Assembly: GCF_004010195.1 (NCBI RefSeq)
Contig: NC_057719.1
Span: forward strand, 39,032,029-39,052,028
Source: Chiloscyllium plagiosum
Taxonomy: Eukaryota
Length of the DNA: 20,000 nt
Reading direction: 5' to 3'
A program made the position numbers and the translations under genes. Of the stretch, positions 1 to 20,000 are shown in pieces; position 1 is the stretch's first letter; the number at the start of each line of letters is the position of its first letter. The notes under the pieces are model-generated. The model did not search any database and had not been told where the DNA came from. It saw only the letters and a list, made by a program, of their open reading frames with translations.

Positions 1-418
1 GGTGTCCCAAACGTATGTGGGAAGTTCCTGGACTTGGGGGATAGGACAGTATCGAGGTAGGAGAGGAGTTCGGTGGGGCAGAAACAGGCTGAGACGATGG
101 GTCAGCTGGGGTGATTAGACTTGTGGATCTTGGGAAGGAGGTAGAATCGGGCGGTGCAGGGTTCCAAAACTATGAGGTTGGAAGCTGTCGGTGGGAGATC
201 TCCTGAGGTGATGAGATTGCGTATGGTCTGGAAAATGATGGTTTGATGGGGTGTGAGGTCATGGTTGAGGGGGCGGTATGAGGAGGTGTCTTCGAGTTGG
301 TGCCTGGCTTCAGCAGTGTAGAGGTCGGTGCGCCAAACTACCACTTCACCCCCTTTGTCTGTTGGTTTGATGGTGAGGTTGGGATTGGTTCCGCTGGTTT
401 GATGGCGAGGTTGGGATT
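1..418 (-). mobile_element. Penelope-like retroelement (PLE) fragment, N-terminal RT region, decayed; continues off the left edge
   Basis: Minus ORF gives IKPTDKGGEVVVW...Y..EA..QL.D...ARFYLLPKIHK, then past a TGA: P-I-V-S-A-C-F-C-P-T-E. This matches the PLE RT motifs IKPADKG / PKIHK..P.RPIVS. The stop at 102-104 sits where Arg is expected. Confidence 0.85.
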
Positions 419-732
419 CCCAGGAATGGTCTGGGAAGCTGGGTTTGAATCCCACCATAGCAGATTGTGGAATTTGAACTTAAAAAATAATGAATCTGTA
501 ATTAAGAATATAACGATTACCATGAAACCACAGTTGATTGACAAAAAAACACATCTGGTTCACTAACATCCTTCTTTTAAAAAAACTGTCATCCTTAACT
601 GATCTAGTCTATATATGAGTCCAGACCCACAACCATGTGGTTGAGTCTCATCTGCCCTCTGGGCAATTAGGGATGGTCAATAAATGCTGACTTACCCAGA
701 GGTAACCTCACCCCATGGATGAGTAATAAAAA
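419..732 (+). mobile_element. tRNA-derived SINE, 5' part of head missing
   Basis: B-box-like GGTTTGAATCC at 442-452; body catctggttcactaa...ccagacccacaaccatgtggttga...gggcaattagggatggtcaataaatgctg; A-rich end. A homologous inverted copy lies at ~13495-13855. Confidence 0.8.
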
Positions 733-1674: not shown

Positions 1675-1703
1675 GTCAATAATGATGAAAAGTCACTTAC
1701 AGC

Positions 1704-1982
1704 GAGTTAGGTTGAAAGCTGAAGAGCAGGACAAGTAGAATAGTGATCTCAGGTTTGCTACTGGTGCCACGAGATCGTGAGATGAGGAACAGCCAGTGAA
1801 TGCAGCTTAACATGTGGCTGCGAGGCTGGTGCAGGAGGGAGGGCTTCAGATACCTAGACCATTGGGATACCTTCTGGGGAAGGTGGGACCTGTACATGAA
1901 GGACGGGTTGCACCTGAACTGGAGGGGCACAAATGTCCTGGGTGGCAGATTTACTCGTGTGATTCAGGAGGGTTTAAACTAG
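1704..1982 (+). pseudogene. CR1 ORF1 C-terminus, SGNH/GDSL esterase domain
   Basis: RIVISGLL.VPR...QLNMWLRGWCRREGFRYLDHW...DGLHLN (block V D-x-x-H) ending GLN*; internal stops. Confidence 0.85.
1970..1982 (+). other. Candidate -1 ribosomal frameshift site (G GGT TTA AAC TAG) at the CR1 ORF1/ORF2 junction
   Basis: TTTAAAC at 1973-1979 is in X-XXY-YYZ phase of ORF1 (codons start 1971, 1974, 1977); stop at 1980-1982; the ORF2 frame is -1 and open across the site. Confidence 0.55.
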
Positions 1983-3046
1983 TTTGGCAGGGGGGTGGGA
2001 ATCAGAGCCACATGTCTAAGAGGGGGTCAGTTGCAGATGGGGCAGTCACAGAATGTATTGAATCTATCAGGAAAGTTTCTCACGCGATGAAACAAAGGGA
2101 TTGGTTAAAGTGTGTCTGCTTTAATGCAAGGAGTGTCCAAAATAAGAGTGACGAACTTAGAGCATGGATCAGTACTTGGGGCTACGATATTGTGGCCATA
2201 ATGGAGACATCGGTTTCACTGGGGCAGGAATGGTTGCTTGATGTTCCAGGGTTTAGAATGTTTAAAAAGAACAGGGGCGGAGGGGTGGAAAATGAGGAGG
2301 GGATATCGCATTGCTAATCAGAGAGTGCATCACAGCTACAGAAACGAAGGTTGTTGAGGAAGGTTTGTCTACTGAGCCAGTATGGGTGGAAGTTAGGAAC
2401 AACAAGGGAACAGTCACCACACTGGGGGCTTTCTACAGACCACCTATTAGCTGTAGAGAGATTGAAGAACTCAATAGGCGGGCAGATTCTGGAAAAATGC
2501 AGAAGTAGCAGGATTGTTGTTATAGGTGATTTCAACTTTCCCAACATCGACTGGAACTTCCTAAGTGCAGATGGTTTGGATGGAACCTTTTTTGTCAGGT
2601 GTGTTCAGGACGGTTTCCTTATTCAGTATGTAGACAGATCGACGAGGGGAGAGGCCATTTTGGATTTGGTGCTCAGCAATGAGCCAGGACAGGTGTCAGA
2701 TCTCGCGGTGGGAGAGCACTTTGGTGACAGTGATCACAACTGCCTCACATTTACCATAGCCTTGGAGAGTGAAAGGAGCAGTTACTGAGGGAAGATATTT
2801 AATTGGGGAAAAGGAAATTATGACGCTATCAGACAGGAATTGGGAAGTGCAGACTGGGAGCAATTGTTCCACAGAAAGGGCATAGCAGACATGTGGAGAC
2901 TATTTAAGGAGCAGTTGTTGCAAGTGATACAAAAAATTTGTTCCTCTGAGATAGGTAAGAAGGGGTAAGATTAAGGAACCTTGGATGACGAGAACAGAGG
3001 AACTTTTCGTCAAAAGGAAGAAGGCAGCTTACGTAAGGTGGGGGAA
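1979..3046 (+). pseudogene. CR1 ORF2 N-terminal APE endonuclease region, frameshifted
   Basis: ORF pieces 1814-2317, 2311-2508 and 2351-2788 tile one APE domain; stop at 2786-2788; no plus-strand RT domain follows. Confidence 0.85.
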
Positions 3047-3238
3047 GTAGTGGACCCAGCACTGATCCTTGTGGCACACCACTGGTCACAGGCCTTCAGT
3101 CTGAAAAGCAATCCTCCACCACCAACCTCTGTCTTCTACCTTCAAGCTAGTTCTATATCCAAATGGCCAGTATTCTATATGATCTAACCTTGCTTACCAA
3201 TCTACCATGAGGAATCTTGTTAAACAGAAGTCCATATG
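3047..3238 (-). mobile_element. CR1 reverse transcriptase fragment in opposite orientation
   Basis: Minus strand reads ...PHGRLVSKVRS...VTSGVPQGSVLGPLL, the CR1 RT motif GVPQGSVLGP. Confidence 0.85.
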
Positions 3239-4274
3239 GAGCCGTAGAAGAAATGGAAGAGTGTGGAAGGTTATCTGGTACACCTAAATAAAACCCTCTC
3301 AGATTGAGAAAGGAAGGAACATTTTACAGAGTCAAATGGAGACCGTAGAAAATTAAAAGTTGTCTTGTAAAACTGTACAGCAAAAGATATGTAACCAGTC
3401 AAGATTCTGTAAGGACCTGAGCCAGCATCATTTTTAAGGGATTCAAGTTCCCATTCTTATCCAATCCTAACTCCATTTGTAAAAGAAATGTACCCTTGAC
3501 TGCATTGTCCCTTATTTTTGACCATCAGTCTTGGAAACAAATTGAAAAACATTCTGTCATTATCTTTATCCCTCAAAATCAATTCACCAACATTAGCTCT
3601 CCAGTTCAACAGCAATGGTAGATCTTGTGGCACATTCAAAGATCTGAAGATTAAAATCCCAATAAAGCAGACTCTGGCATGGCTTCACATAATTCAGTGA
3701 ACAACAGCAGAATTTCTATTTTCCTCTATATTAGGAGTGGGCTCACTGAATGGATACTGGAATCTGGTTGATACAAGAGTATTGTTTAAATCAAAACTGA
3801 AAGAAAAAGGTTTCCTAAAATAATTTTAAAAAGAACCTTTCTTAGGCTGTAATGTTGGTTTGCATCACAAGGAGGATGTTAGCACTATACAGCCTGCTAA
3901 TGCTAATATTTGGTGTGTGGTTTTGACCAGTGAAAATTCAAATAGATAACTGGAAAGTTAAATGACTTGATTGTGGATTATGGAGGCTCCACTGAAATTA
4001 CAAAATTAGCAAAATAATCAAAACAGCCACAAATATTTTGCCAAGGTGATTTTATTTCTGAAAGATTGTCAATCTCAACGAACTAAAAATTTATAACTCC
4101 CATTAACTCAAATATTTGAATCACAAGCTACTATTCTGCAGAGTTTAATTATTTTATCTATGAAGTACTTTTCTAACAAGTTGTTTACTTGCTAAATACC
4201 GCCAGATACAAATTTTCATGAAGATAAGAATAATCCATAGGTGATGAATTTAGATCTGTATCTCATCTGACAAC

Positions 4275-6176: not shown

Positions 6177-6321
6177 GATTCTGTAGAACTGCTGTGGACA
6201 GCTCTGCCTAACAGCCAAGGCATACCAGTGTTTTTTGCCATCCCTGGCCAACTTATGTGGTGGAATCATTAGTTTAAAATCTTACAGAACACATACTTGT
6301 TAATATTTGGGATTGGGAAGG

Positions 6322-7196
6322 ATGCCAAAGGGAAAAAGAGCAAGCAAACAGCAGCACGGAGGACACTCCCCTGCAGCACCGGGTACACCAGAGACTGCAG
6401 CAGCAGCAGCTTCTCCTGAACCCCCCGGGAACCTGACAGACTCACGGGAATGGGCTGCAGCGACGGAGAGACCTATCTTGAAAGTTGTGGCTGCGATTGA
6501 GGAAATCCGTGGGGAGATTCGTGCCCAGGTCCAACCTATTGCATCCATGCTGCAGAAGCATGAGCAGGAGATCCAGGGCCTCGGGGAGAGGCTAGAGGAG
6601 GTGGAGGGTCGAACTAAGGCCTCAGAAGCTGCAATGGAGTCCTCATCCAGTCGGATCCAAGTGCTGGAGAGAGAGGTCTTGCGAAACCATATCGACGACC
6701 TCAAAAATCGAGGTTGGAGGATAAATCTCCGAATTGTCGGGCTCCCTGAAGGTGAGGAAGGTGAGCAGCCAGTCAGCTTGTTTGAAAGCAGGCTGCCGAA
6801 ATTTTTGGGCCTTCAGATGGAGTCCAGCAGGCTTCAGATTGAAAGGGTGTATCGGGTTACAGTGCAAGGTCAGGCCCAGTGCAGCATCTCTGCTCAGTCC
6901 TAGTGCACATCTATTCATATAAGGACAAGCAAAAAGTCATAGAAGCTTCTAGATCCCTGGGAAAAGATCCACAGGCACTGCTGTGCAAGGGGTCAAAAAT
7001 CATGTTTTTCCAGGATTTTTCAGCAGCTGTAATTCGAAAGAGGAAGTCCTTCGATGAAGTTAAAAAGAGGCTGAGAAATCTGGGCATCCAGTACTCCACG
7101 AGATACCCTGCAGTGCTTCGTTTCAGCCACGAGGACTCAGTTTATACATTTGACTCGGTGGATAAGGCTAAAGACTTTGTGGACACTTTAAAATAG
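6322..7196 (+). pseudogene. L1 ORF1 (coiled coil, RRM, CTD), frameshifted near 6870-6900
   Basis: Heptad region LQKHEQEIQGLGERLEEVEGR; RINLRIVGLPEGEEG; IERVYR; FFQDFS...KRKSF...YPAVLR. Confidence 0.9.
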
Positions 7197-7796
7197 ATGG
7201 ATTGGCCTGAAGAATATGGTTAATGTTTGTTCTCTTTTCTATCTTTCCCCATGTTTTCCCTTCTTTTTTTTATTCCTTTCTGACTCCCTAATAATTTCCT
7301 TTTTGGAAAATGGGGAAAAGATTGTGGAATAAGTTGTTCCTATTTTTTTGAATAACTGGATTTTCTGATGGGAAATTTTGTGGATGTTCTTTGTTGTCTC
7401 TCCCTTTTTTTTGTTTGTTCTGCTTCTCTTTAGTCACAAGTAGGGGTGACATGAAGCCAAGGATGGGTGACTTTGTCTTTTTTTCTGTTGATTTAAGGAT
7501 CATCTCCTTGTTTTTTTTTCTGGCCTAAGGCTGGGGCACAGTCCAGGTTTGAAGGAGCTGTGAAGGAGGGGATGGGTAGGGCGAGTGCCCCCTATGGGCA
7601 GGTGGAAGAGACTTCCATTCAAGGTTCTATAGTTGGTTTTCTTTGTAGTTTTTTGGTATAATAGTTGTTTATAGTTATGATAGAGTAGTTTTTGTATATA
7701 TAGTTTTTCAATTCTATGAGTCTTTATTTACTTATGCGCAGTACTTTGTAAGCAGAGTTGTCCCTCCGAGGGGTTCAAGGGTGTCTGAAAGGGGAT

Positions 7797-10700
7797 ATGG
7801 CTAAGTGTCTTATTAAATGGTGCACCTGAAACATTAAGGGAAGTCATTCACCTGTTAAAAGGAAAAAAAGTGCTTTCTAGCCTTAAGAGGGAAAGGGTTG
7901 ATATCGCTTTGTTGCAGGAAACCCATCATGATGATGGGGAACACCTGAAATTACAACAGGGGGATTATGACAGGGTATTCTTTTCATTCTTTACCAGTAA
8001 AAGTAGGGGAGTGGCAGTACTTATACAAAAAATCATCCGTTCACATTATTAGAGCAGGTGAAAGACAAGCAGGGATGGTTTGTGATACTTAAAGCCCTGA
8101 TACATGGGGAGAAATGTGGCATTTTAAACATTTACTGTCCTCCGGTGCATCCCCTCAAATTTTTGATTAGAGCTTTCTCTAAGTTGAGTGCTTTTGGAAC
8201 ACGGCACATTATTATAGGGGGGGATTTTAATTGTTTTTGGATCCGACAGTGGACAGGATGCCTTGTGGGCCCCCAATTATTTCTTCGCAGGCCAAGCAGG
8301 TGGTTGACTTATGCAAGGAGTTGGGTCTGGTGGATATTTGGAGATGTCTTCACCCTACCGGCAGGGACTTTACCTTTTTTTCAAATCCACATAAATGTCA
8401 CACAAGGACTGACCTCTTTCTGGCTCCCTCAGCCCTTCTGGATTCGATTATGGGTTGTAAAATTGGGAATAAAGCTATCTCTGATCACACAGCAGTATAT
8501 TTGGAGGTTAAGGCCAAGAGTGAAGGGCTAGGTTTGCGGCACTGGCGTTTGGACCCTTTTCTCCTTAAGGATTCCAAATTTGTGGAATACTTTTTGAAGG
8601 AGTTTCAGGAATTCTTGATTATCAACTCAGGCACGGCTAGTAGTCCATCTATGCTATGGGAGACTGCTAAGGCTTTTGCGAGGGGATTAGCTATTTCCTA
8701 TTCGGCTAGCTGGAAATGACAGGAGGAGGAACAGCAGCGTCTTTTTGAGACACGGTTGAAAGCCGCGGAGGCAGCACATTTTGCGCGGCCTTCGGTGACT
8801 AAGCTACAGTGGATCATGGCCCTTCGGGTTGCCTTGAATTCAATACTGACACAAAACGCAAAGAAAGAACTTCCTTTTGCTAAACAGAGGCTGTTCGTAT
8901 ACGAGGATAGGCCAGGGAAGTATTTAGCGTACCTGACTAGGAAAAAGCGTGCTCCCCAATCCATTACTGCAATCAGAGACAGCGCCAGGGTCCTTACATA
9001 CGATGCTAAAAAGATTAATGAGGCTTTTCGGAGCTTTTACTCTGAATTGTATCAGTCTGAAGGTTGCAAAGACAGGAGGACTAAAATGAAGGCCACTTTT
9101 AAGAACCTGGACCTCCCAGGGGTAACCTTGGAACAGGCCTCTCTCCTTAATGTCTCCTTGATAGTTCAGGAAATACAGAAGGCAGCTAGGCAACTTCAGA
9201 GTGGGAAAGCGCCTGGCCCTGATGGTCTTCCGGGTGAGTTTTATAAGGAGTTTATAGGGATTCTGTCAGGGCCAATGTTGGAGATGTACAATCACTCCTA
9301 TATACATGAATGCATACCACCGTCTTTTAGAAAAGCTAATATTTCCTTAATTCTTAAGAAGGGGAAGGTTCCTGAGGATTGTGCCTCATACAAGCCCATC
9401 TCTCTATTAAATTCAGAGATCAAGATTCTGTCCAAGATCCTGAGATTGGAAAGGGTGTTGCCCCATACTATTAAAGAGGACCAGACAGTCTTTATAAGGG
9501 GCCGTAGGTCCTCTAATAATATTAGAAGGTTGCTGAATGTGGTCCAAGTTTGTCAGCAATGATCGGATTCAGGGGTTGGTGATTTCCTTAGATGCAGAGA
9601 AAGCATTTGACCGGGTGGAATGGCCGTATCTTTTTTATGTCTTAGAACAGTTCGGGTTGGGTGGGGTCTTTGCTCGGTGGGTGGAGGTTTTATATCGCAA
9701 CCCTCTGGCTGCGGTCATCACCAACGGGGTGAAGTCTGGGAATTTTACGATTGGTAGGGGTAGTCGGCAAGGCTGCCCCCTCTCACCGTTGTTGTTTACA
9801 TTGGTGATAGAGCCACTGGCAGAGTCCATTCGTCAGAACATCCACATAACCGCTCCAGAAGTGGGATCGAGGGCACACAAGATTACACTGTACGCGGATG
9901 ATGTCCTTCTGTTTTTAATCGAACCCGATGACCTCTGTACCCTATTTGGTACAATGTATCCATTCATTTGGGGCTATTTCAGGATATAAGATTAACTTTG
10001 CAAAATCGGAGGCTATGCCTTTGGGGAGCCTTAAGGATGTGCCAGAAGTTGAAGGTGGCCCTAAGTTCCCTTTTAAGTGGTCATGGGCAGGGTTCCGACA
10101 CCCAGGCATTTTTATTACCCCTAAGTTTGATCTGTTATTTCGGACTAACTTTGCTCACTTGCTCGACAATATTAGGCGGGATCTCCAGAGATAGGGGACT
10201 GTTCCAATTTCATGGTTGGGCCGAATATCTCTCATTAAGATTAATGTTCTTCCTCGTTTGCTTTATTCCATGCTATTGCTCCCTATAATGTTTCCCAGGT
10301 CAACGCTGTGGAAGCTTATGGGGTGGTTTGGTTCCTTTGTCTGGCATCATGGGCAGCCCCTCATCAAACTTACTAAATTGCAGTTGCCTCAAGGAGGGGG
10401 AGGAGTTAATTTCCCAGACATCAGGAGGTATCAATTGAATTCTTTGCTGTCCTTTATCTGTGATTGGCTCGGTAACGATCCAAGCTCAATATGGCTGGAT
10501 ATTGAGGCCTCCCAAGCAAAGTGTCCTCTTATTAACCTGTTGTTCATGGATAAGATGAGGACAGTTATGGACCACTTCCGGAACCCCATTGTCATTAGTA
10601 CAGTCAGGGCTTGAAGGGCGATGCATCAGAGTGAGAGTTGTTTATCCAAGACTTCGCTACTTACACCTATAGTTGGCATGCCGGGATTCCGACCAGGGAT

Positions 10701-11609
10701 GATGGACTCAGGATTCAAACTATGGGCAGCAAGAGGAGTTTCTAGTTTGGGAGACTTGTTTGAGGGGGACGTTATGATGTCTTTTGAGCAACTGAGCTGC
10801 AAATACGGGTTACCCAGCAGAGATCTTTCTGTTTTTTTCAGATAAGGGATTTCATCCAGAAGAAGACTACATTTCTCACTAAGCCCTATAAACCAGATAC
10901 AGAGAGGTTGTTGCTACGTTCCACAAGCACCCTTTTTTTTTTAGTGCCCTGTATTGCCTGCTAGGTGGCAGGGCCTGGCAGGATATTAACCGGTTATGTG
11001 AGGTCTGGCAGCAAGAGCTAGGAGTGGAGATCTCTTTTGAAACATGGGAGAACATATGGGAGAATACTCAAAAGATCTCAATCTGTAATAGGACATGCGC
11101 TACGCAGTTACAAGTTCTGCACAGGACTCATCTGGCACCAGACCGTCTGGCGAAGTTTTAAAAAGGGGCATCTTCAGTGTGCCCCAAATGTAAAATAAGT
11201 GTAGGTACTCTTACCCATTGCTTCTGGACATGCCGCAGGCTCAGTGTTTATTGGAGCACTGTGGCGGGAGAGATAGCGCGGGTATTGAGGACTGAAGTCA
11301 AAGTAGACCCGATATCTCTCCTCTTCGGTCTACCGAATTTACCATCTTTAGACGGGCATGGGAAGAAACTATTTAATATTCTTGCATACTGTGCACAGAA
11401 GAATATTCTGATGAATTGGATGTCTGAGAACCTGCCGGGCTTACTGGGATTGCAGAAATTAATTATGGAGCACATTCCCTTTGACTTTTTTACAAACATG
11501 GTGCACCACACAACAAGTAGGGCTGCCATGTTTTTATAAGACATGGCAGCCCTACTGGAGTTATTTGGAAACAAATTTGTCAGTTGTCATAACTAGGGCG
11601 TTTGTTTAA
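7797..11609 (+). pseudogene. L1 ORF2 (APE endonuclease, RT, C-terminal CCHC), multiple stops and frameshifts
   Basis: T*NIKG, LLQETH, GGDFN, ISDH; GKAPGPDG, LDAEKAFDRVEW, RQGCPLSPLLF, YADD (9891-9902); CPKC-x7-H-x4-C; ends ...TRAFV*. Confidence 0.92.
11516..11556. repeat. Perfect 16-bp inverted repeat with 9-nt spacer
   Basis: AGTAGGGCTGCCATGT (11516-11531) / ACATGGCAGCCCTACT (11541-11556). Confidence 0.95.
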
Positions 11610-18479: not shown

Positions 18480-19465
18480 ATGGAAATGTTAGATTATTAA
18501 AAAGTGTTTTTAGAATCAGGGCATAGACCAATAACTTACAATTAATTTATGCGACAAATATACATGTAATAGATGTAATTTGTCTGGAATTTCAAAAGGC
18601 CTTTGATAAACTGCCAACAATACAAAATGATAACATCAAAAAAATGTGAAGTCTGAGGGATAGGTGGCACAATAGATTGCTAGTTGGCTTGAAGAAAGAA
18701 AGCGGTAGAAACAAAGGATGGTTATTCAGAGTGGAAGAAAATGGGAAATGGATTTCCCCAAAGCTCAATGCTGAAATCATTGCTGTTCACAATTTACTGT
18801 TACATTAAAGATTTGTACTTTGGACTCAAAAACACATTTTCTAAATTTAATATGACACCAATACTGGAGATTTCTGCAACAAGTTACAGAATTGCATTAA
18901 CTTGCATAATAGGCAAATAATTGACAAATGAAATTCAATACTTATAAACATAATGCAGTACATCTTAGGTGGTCATGCATTATTTGGAAAGTGCAAATCT
19001 ATGTAGTGTAGGGGAAGATATTCAGAACTAGGAGTAAGATGTAGCAATCATTAAAATTTGTGTCACACATTATCAAGTATATAAGATGAACAAAGAAAGC
19101 ACTAAGTTTAATTTCCAGAAGGATAGACTTGGAAAGCCTTACTGAACCTTGATTGACCACATTTAGGATATTGTATGCAGTTTGGTTGCTATATTGTGAA
19201 ACAAATAGGGAAGCATTGGAGAGAGTACACGAAACATTTCCAAGGACAAAACTAGAAATGCATAGTTATACTTATCAGGAAAGAATTGATAGGCTAGGCT
19301 GGGACTCCTGTCTCTTGAATCAAAAATGTTGAAAAGTCTTTAAAATTATTAAAGATTTGATAGAATAGATACAGGTAAAATTTTTCCAGTTGTGGGAAGG
19401 AGCATAACTAGAATCAATTAATATAAGATAATCATCAAGAAATCCAATAAGAAATTAGGAAGAAA
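18480..19465 (+). mobile_element. Old, heavily degraded CR1 RT-domain segment
   Basis: DVICLEFQKAFDKLP, GFPQSSMLKSLLFTIY, YIKDL...FSKF, QMKFN, FKIIK in order, with many lesions. Confidence 0.75.
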
Positions 19466-20000
19466 GCACAGATAGGCGGTTCTGTGGGGGCGAGAGAGAC
19501 TGACGTTTGGTATGTTTCCTCTCAGGTGCAAGGGTACGTGACGTCTCTGATCGTGTTTTCCGGGTCCTTAAGGGGGAGGGGGAGCAGCCCGAAGTCGTGG
19601 TCCACATTGGCACCAACGACATAGGTAGGAGGAGGGCTAAGGATGTTAGGCAGGCTTTCAGGGAGCTAGGTTGGAAGTTCAGAGTTAGAATGAACAGAGT
19701 TGTTGTCTCTGGTTTGTTACCGGTGCCACGTGATAGAGAGTCGAGGAATAGGGAGAGAGAACAGTTAAATGCGTGGCTACAGGGATGATGCAGGAGGGAG
19801 GGATTCTGGTATCTGGATAACTGGGGTTCTTTCTGGGGAAGGTGGGACCTCTATAAACAGGATGGTGTACACCTGAACCTGAGGGGCACCAGTATCCTTG
19901 GTGGGAGGTTTGCTAGTGCTCTTGGGGAGGGGGATTTAAACTAACTCTGCAGGGGCATGGGAACCCAGACTGTAGCTTTAGGGTGCAGAACCTGGAGTGT
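19466..20000 (+). mobile_element. CR1 LINE, 5'-truncated within ORF1 SGNH esterase; continues off the right edge
   Basis: VCFLSGARVRDV, VVVHIGTND (block III), VVVSGLLPVPR, DGVHLN, ending GDLN* at 19944; one W-to-TGA at 19786. Confidence 0.92.
19935..19944 (+). other. Candidate -1 frameshift site (T TTA AAC TAA), second CR1 copy
   Basis: TTTAAAC at 19935-19941 is in ORF1 phase (TTA 19936, AAC 19939); stop at 19942-19944; the -1 frame is open to the window end. Confidence 0.55.

Follow-up and report, generated by a model that had tools for sequence, protein, structure and literature searches.

A candidate programmed -1 ribosomal frameshift site at the ORF1-ORF2 junction of CR1 retrotransposons

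CR1 retrotransposons are abundant in sharks and reptiles as well as in birds, and how their ORF2 is translated appears unsettled. The question is raised by a junction at the right edge of the window, i.e. the whole stretch analysed (20,000 nucleotides of Chiloscyllium plagiosum DNA; contig NC_057719.1, positions 39,032,029 to 39,052,028), which holds two CR1 copies in which the end of ORF1 adjoins ORF2 (copy 1 and copy 2; Table 1). A preliminary description of copy 2, made from the sequence alone, proposed that both copies share a slippery heptamer, a stop codon, a spacer with a downstream stem and a -1 peptide, and that this favours frameshifting over reinitiation. The preference for frameshifting is supported by the relatives of these copies; the part of the argument that relied on a conserved stem is unsupported. 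The evidence points, with a probability of about 0.75, to an ORF2 that would be made as an ORF1-ORF2 fusion via programmed -1 ribosomal frameshifting; the support given by outside sequences is far stronger than that given by the two window copies.

Table 1. Features of the window that belong to, or accompany, the two CR1 junctions
Feature	Positions	Strand	Basis or remark
Open frame	102-479	-	
Copy 1, C-terminal remnant of CR1 ORF1	1695..1979	+	68% identical to P0002 residues 214-308
Copy 1, heptamer TTTAAAC and TAG	1973..1982	+	
Copy 1, remnant of ORF2, read in the -1 frame	1973..3038	+	48-codon linker, then APE endonuclease
Copy 1, G tract	1990..1999	+	
Inverted CR1 RT fragment	3021-3224	-	Right after the cut end of copy 1
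Long decayed L1/Tx1-like element	6300-11540	+	Coiled-coil ORF1 followed by ORF2 pieces
3' remnant of a further CR1 ORF2 (RT), decayed	18563..19412	+	tblastn with P0029, E 7e-19
Copy 2, ORF1 3' half (SGNH/GDSL esterase domain), 5'-cut	19468..19941	+	90% identical to P0002 residues 152-306
Copy 2, slippery heptamer T TTA AAC (X_XXY_YYZ), final ORF1 codons	19935..19941	+	Sequence
Copy 2, stop-free -1 frame (beginning of the ORF1-ORF2 linker)	19935..20000	+	Runs off the window
Copy 2, ORF1 stop TAA abutting the heptamer	19942..19944	+	Sequence
Copy 2, stem of the preliminary description	19947..19975	+	Can form in copy 2; unconserved
Copy 2, GGGG at +11..+14 past the heptamer	19952..19955	+	Candidate cis element

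The ORF1 of copy 2 ends in GAT TTA AAC TAA (19933-19944), in ORF1 phase, and its -1 frame reads FKLTLQGHGNPDCSFRVQNLEC, with neither stop nor Met over 22 codons to the window edge; both had been read correctly from the start. In related loci, the APE motif lies 33-88 codons downstream of the heptamer, and the 22 codons visible in copy 2 therefore cannot by themselves show an ATG-less ORF2. TTTAAAC has 8 matches in the window (4.9 expected), so that the heptamer by itself is not rare and its conservation was tested in sequences from elsewhere; what lies beyond chance is its position and conservation, not its mere occurrence.

Copy 2 is a dead member of an abundant CR1 family. It is 5'-cut, its cut end adjoining the older decayed RT fragment, and its ORF1 carries two in-frame TGA codons (19501-19503, 19786-19788); its junction signal therefore describes its family. 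Both stops are specific to this copy, since family reads have a different base at 19502 and at 19788; the summed depth of these reads across the copy 2 element is very high. The GAT codon before the heptamer is probably also peculiar to copy 2, since base 19934 is G in the family contigs (97% of depth, run X1) and P0002 ends EG-LN, one residue shorter. The copy 2 fragment matches Pfam Lipase_GDSL_2 weakly (E 5e-5, below cutoff); P0002, its full-length homolog, passes the cutoffs for PF13472 and PF00657.

Copy 1 is 72% identical to copy 2 across 310 nt, and its ORF1 ends in GGT TTA AAC TAG (1971-1982). Its -1 peptide, FKLVWQGGGN..., agrees with the one given in the preliminary description and leads into an APE endonuclease that is broken by frameshifts and stops (Pfam Exo_endo_phos_2, E 9e-9; also tblastn with P0029). 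Two Met codons are found in its linker, one of them the ATG at 2012-2014. In copy 1 (1970-1979), another in-phase heptamer, G_GGU_UUA, begins one codon earlier and overlaps U_UUA_AAC; the same overlap is found by read evidence in the family of copy 2, not in locus L001 or in the bird-like loci. Among the other elements of the window, the L1/Tx1-like ORF2 pieces comprise an endonuclease (weak), an RT (RVT_1, E 3e-19) and a Cys/His-rich end. The open frame near the left edge has no Pfam match and is taken here to resemble the beginning of a Penelope-type reverse transcriptase.

Relatives were fetched with the ORF1 alignment, using search patterns that lie far from the junction and exclude it. 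Of the 27 loci from the metagenome scan, 11 have a readable junction, one has it deleted, 12 are CR1-like but end earlier, and three are bacterial-type SGNH loci; the two loci given by the genome search are both unrelated SGNH genes. The five unrelated SGNH loci (three metagenome, two genome) served as controls. The 13 readable junctions, i.e. the two window copies and the 11 fetched loci, include the shark-type copies, L001 and ten related bird-like elements, and should thus be counted as about three deep independent lineages. The ORF1 end of L001 matches a sturgeon-named protein in 24 of 26 residues, and the ORF2 of L011 matches bird records at about 70%. In L015 (bird-like), a deletion at about 3345-3350 removed the ORF1 end and the heptamer, together with roughly 22 codons from the start of the linker. 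No CR1 junction was found in the viral contigs searched, and plasmids and phages gave no match.

Named vertebrate homologs of ORF1 are shark, skate and sawfish records; 24 of the 25 aligned ORF1 homologs end in LN and one in IN (a 26th, a partial match, was omitted). P0005 and P0029, which come from records named Pseudomonas and Carnobacterium, are actually shark-type CR1 ORF1 and ORF2; the bacterial names probably reflect contamination of public bacterial assemblies. The assignment of these elements to the CR1 group is based on predicted domain layout and on similarity to shark, bird and turtle records. An SGNH/GDSL esterase domain is recognized in ORF1 through full-length P0002. In ORF2, copy 1 has the APE domain, and L011 and L012 have APE plus RVT_1 in a single frame running from the heptamer. 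A 3' UTR stem-loop and a short tandem repeat tail were seen in the relative L011; they are absent from the window, where the copies are cut.

TTTAAAC is exact, and in phase before the 0-frame stop, in all 13 readable junctions (shark, sturgeon-like and bird-like); none of the five control SGNH loci has an in-phase heptamer before its stop. The stop follows the heptamer directly in 11 of 13 (TAG in 9, TAA in 1, TGA in 1); the codon there is TGC in L014 and AAG in L021. The codon that precedes L-N specifies six different residues (G, D, H, A, C, S) and ends in T every time. The heptamer Leu is always TTA (13/13), a codon used for only 5 of the 80 other Leu residues in these ORF1 ends; likewise, the heptamer Asn is AAC in 13/13, against 19 of 42 elsewhere in the same ends. 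A single codon is kept in none of five other invariant ORF1 columns and in one of 12 invariant APE columns. Given the protein ending alone, the chance of the heptamer codons is about 0.006 per lineage. To judge from these alignments, the junction is under nucleotide constraint beyond that of the protein.

Downstream, the APE domain was expected in the -1 frame, with no conserved ATG at its beginning. The -1 frame is stop-free from the heptamer to the APE motif in seven of nine long loci, with linkers of 33, 37, 37, 37, 48, 51 and 88 codons, and no ATG is shared among the relatives; in the other two, L003 and L021, which are decayed, it does not reach the motif. In L011 and L012, this frame extends over about 950 codons that take in APE and RT. 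In 8 of 13 junctions, the -1 frame is closed by a stop 2-7 codons before the heptamer, and the interval in which this frame can be entered therefore contains the heptamer. Over nine loci (L003 and L021 omitted as decayed), stops account for 0 of 357 -1 codons and for 51 of 711 codons in the two remaining frames; of the 357, 110 precede the first Met (P about 3e-4, ignoring relatedness).

The index of the first Met is 13 for copy 1, 22 for L004 and 4 for L007, L008, L011 and L012; L001 has no Met ahead of the APE motif. The linker from FKL on is included in 28 of 120 bird and turtle ORF2 gene models. It is Met-less in two of these 28, and in 23 the first Met has index 68-93; the models are biased to open frames, and 25 of these linkers seem to belong to a single long-linker subfamily that comes almost entirely from one stork. 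A profile of the N-termini matches L1 endonuclease structures (1vyb, 2v0s; E about 5e-7) from residue 16 on, so that a start at the first Met of L001 would cut into the domain. The -1 peptide of L001, searched alone against the PDB, gave no match. The stretch that a start at this Met would lose presumably holds a catalytic Asn.

Under programmed frameshifting, the majority of ribosomes would stop at the ORF1 stop and release abundant ORF1p. A minority would slip at the heptamer, tRNA-Leu and tRNA-Asn moving in tandem from UUA-AAC to UUU-AAA, and would resume at CUA, giving a minor Gag-Pol-like ORF1-ORF2 fusion whose joint would read ...L-N-L-x-x-Q-G-x-G. The pause would probably come from the adjacent stop and the invariant G tract at +11..+14 rather than from a classical stem-loop; this is the weakest step. 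Codon invariance, an open -1 linker of variable length, the lack of a conserved Met and the covariation of ORF1 ends favour frameshifting; the lack of a frameshift-type 3' structure, the four bird-like ATGs at codon 5 and the ORF1 ends without N speak against it. The lack of an AUG is by itself indecisive, since ORF2 of mammalian L1 is thought to start by AUG-independent initiation (PMC5009743).

U_UUA_AAC, G_GGA_AAC and A_AAA_AAC rank with the heptamers most prone to shifting on mammalian ribosomes, and X_XX may be G_GA; in the umbravirus PEMV, a nearby stop on the 3' side of the shift site has an effect (PMC5009743).

The main rival to frameshifting is termination-reinitiation, which is judged improbable. 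Ribosomes would stop at the ORF1 end and restart nearby in the -1 frame, either at an ATG 2 nt downstream or at a non-AUG codon, the heptamer and the G tract then being a ribosome-retention signal. An ATG stands at codon 5, an ideal placement 2 nt past the stop, in four of 13 junctions (the bird-like L007, L008, L011 and L012), and near-cognate CTG, GTG or AGG is found at codon 5 in copy 2, L005 and L001; L1 offers a precedent (PMC5009743), and a frameshift-type structure was not found at the junctions. But codon 5 is TGG, TCG, GAC or TCC in six of 13 junctions and Met in none of the 28 linker-bearing gene models, and reinitiation explains neither the exact X_XXY_YYZ phase nor the LN/QGN/KN swap described below. 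It may coexist with frameshifting in some bird subfamilies.

The junction could also be a splice acceptor (..CTAG followed by the joint) or a polymerase slippage site, ORF2 then being put in frame at the RNA level. CTAG follows in nine of 13 junctions, and eukaryotic gene models often enter ORF2 near FKL; but TAA takes the place of TAG in the family of copy 2, as does TGA in L003, an upstream pyrimidine tract is absent, and no joint or indel lies at the heptamer among those listed, with 57 RNA reads there (X21). Polymerase slippage would call for longer runs than three T and three A, which counts against it, and both variants are very unlikely. Least probable of all is a junction without recoding, where L-N-stop would be protein-constrained and ORF2 would come from a separate or 5'-cut RNA at whichever AUG is first: most linkers do carry some Met ahead of the APE motif, and turtle gene models begin at a Met 24 residues before it, but synonymous positions are not fixed by protein constraint (0/5 control columns), L001, P0252 and P0261 have no Met before the motif, and the stork subfamily keeps 60-80 Met-free linker codons open.

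More distant ORF1 proteins bear on frameshifting through their ends. A profile search (representatives at 50% identity) gave 150 proteins, 106 of which extend beyond the DGxH motif; 97 of these end near the shark ORF1 end and were counted, and nine were dropped. N is the last residue in 67 of 97 (LN, 50; GN, 10; EN, 3; SN, 2; KN, 1; FN, 1), turtle- and lizard-named records being among the LN-ending representatives. Q precedes GN in nine of 10 and LN in none of 50 (Fisher P 7e-10, ignoring relatedness). This swap is expected, because CAG GGA AAC and NNT TTA AAC require such residues. A residue that has no T-ending codon precedes LN in one of 50 (background 0.13, P 0.007; P 0.024 on 33 distinct tails). 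In a quick tree, the GN, KN and EN ends cluster in one 24-row group with one LN end. The ends LN, QGN, KN and EN would thus fit an X_XXA_AAC site that is kept while X changes, the GN group being read from protein ends only. The remaining 30 of 97 lack a final N, two fully supported clades (6 and 8 rows) among them. P0085, P0100, P0125 and P0157 end in F-F-x, not x-N; such ends could reflect a U-run shift site.

The stem of the preliminary description (19947-19952/19970-19975) has the coordinates given there and is part of the minimum-energy fold of copy 2, but it is not conserved, and copy 1, described there as having the same 5-nt spacing between heptamer and stem, does not form this helix. 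The copy 2 fold is no better than shuffled sequences (z -0.4 and -0.9), that of copy 1 is worse (z +0.9 to +1.5), and the L001 junction is essentially unstructured. Across 11 junctions, the six pairs of the stem hold in 33% of cells (38% in shuffles), folds of 59 nt have z above -1.2 in 11/11, and the RNAalifold consensus has 0 pairs; as a conserved element, the stem is rejected. No conserved stem-loop or pseudoknot was found 5-9 nt downstream, in a comparison that includes only two shark sequences, and Rfam gave no match for the junction. By inspection, ACCC (19963-19966), in the loop of the proposed stem of copy 2, could pair with GGGT (19981-19984) as an H-type pseudoknot, in which a C>T variant at 19966 would preserve a U-G pair; copy 1 shows no sign of it.

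GGGG at +11..+14 after the heptamer is invariant in 11 of 11 aligned junctions, and the Gly codon of this tract is always GGG (11/11, against 79 of 243 Gly codons in ORF2). Searches nearby, over long range and in the 3' UTR gave no conserved pairing partner for the tract, and in seven loci no long-range partner upstream or downstream beats shuffles. L011 is the sole locus with both junction and 3' UTR; its 3'-UTR candidate (-13.4 kcal/mol) ranks 19-24 of about 74 sites, has its arm tied up in the UTR's own hairpin and is unsupported. A site late in ORF2 of L011 (3457-3486) pairs with the G tract at -28.8 kcal/mol and outdoes every one of 12 codon shuffles; the corresponding site in L012 ranks just 51 of 74, and this candidate was rejected. 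The G4Hunter score tops all ORF1 background windows in eight of 11 junctions, copy 2 not being one of them, and ViennaRNA folds a two-tier quadruplex in three of 11. These predictions are no more than suggestive of a G-quadruplex at the G tract.

No paper that proposes CR1 frameshifting was found in the literature covered, which does not extend to Kapitonov and Jurka 2003 or to the original CR1 descriptions from turtle and chicken (1997). The overlap of the ORFs may reportedly have been remarked upon in those works, and priority is therefore uncertain. The CR1-group LINEs (ZfL2-1 type; chicken CR1) likewise have an SGNH-esterase ORF1, then an ORF2 with APE and RT (PMC3905857, PMC11835228); the papers on this group describe two ORFs, and the junction reported here has the anatomy of a -1 shift site. 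In the available parts of these two papers, 'frameshift' is absent from PMC3905857 and used in PMC11835228 only for ALV (retroviral) gag-pol; it is also absent from the review PMC5633606, and the whole word CR1 is absent from the part of PMC5009743 covered. The Dictyostelium elements TRE5-A and TRE3-A, also APE-type non-LTR, are said to need a -1 frameshift for ORF2 (PMC5911963). They differ by LINE lineage, by their amoeba host and by their ORF1, and the shift site is not given in the available part of that paper.

IBV has the same heptamer, U_UUA_AAC, and viral cassettes share the Gag-Pol-like ratio logic (PMC5009743). Unlike these, the CR1 junction has an unpaired G tract and no conserved pseudoknot or stem 5-9 nt downstream, and it sits in a chromosomal non-LTR retrotransposon. 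Shifting can also be stimulated without a classical pseudoknot, as at the protein-stimulated sites of arteriviruses and cardioviruses, and natural stimulation by a G-quadruplex was unknown as of 2016 (PMC5009743). Mammalian LINE-1 likewise has a bicistronic RNA, an ORF2 independent of a particular AUG (PMC5009743) and a homologous endonuclease; a spacer lies between its ORFs and its ORF2p is a protein of its own, whereas ORF2 of CR1 overlaps ORF1 in the -1 frame at the slippery site.

A broader reading is offered tentatively, at somewhat less than even odds: esterase-type CR1 elements from sharks to birds, with relatives that use G_GGA_AAC, A_AAA_AAC or G_GAA_AAC, would make their RT as a Gag-Pol-like fusion, triggered not by a stem or pseudoknot but by the adjacent stop together with a G tract lying unpaired at the mRNA entry channel (as a G-quadruplex or with a bound protein). 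The tract would then be a natural stimulator of a type for which synthetic constructs, or viral sites with a different binding motif, are so far the only examples.

Among the LINEs of birds CR1 is dominant, and it makes up 11.8% of chicken chromosomes (PMC11835228). The cassette, of about 100 nt, can be tested in a reporter and offers a candidate natural G-tract stimulator, and the protein ends LN, QGN, KN and EN provide a signature with which the mechanism may be mapped across LINE lineages. If frameshifting is true, ORF2 annotations that begin at the first Met miss the real N-terminus, and CR1 would make an esterase-endonuclease-RT fusion at a fixed low ratio, like retroviruses and unlike L1.
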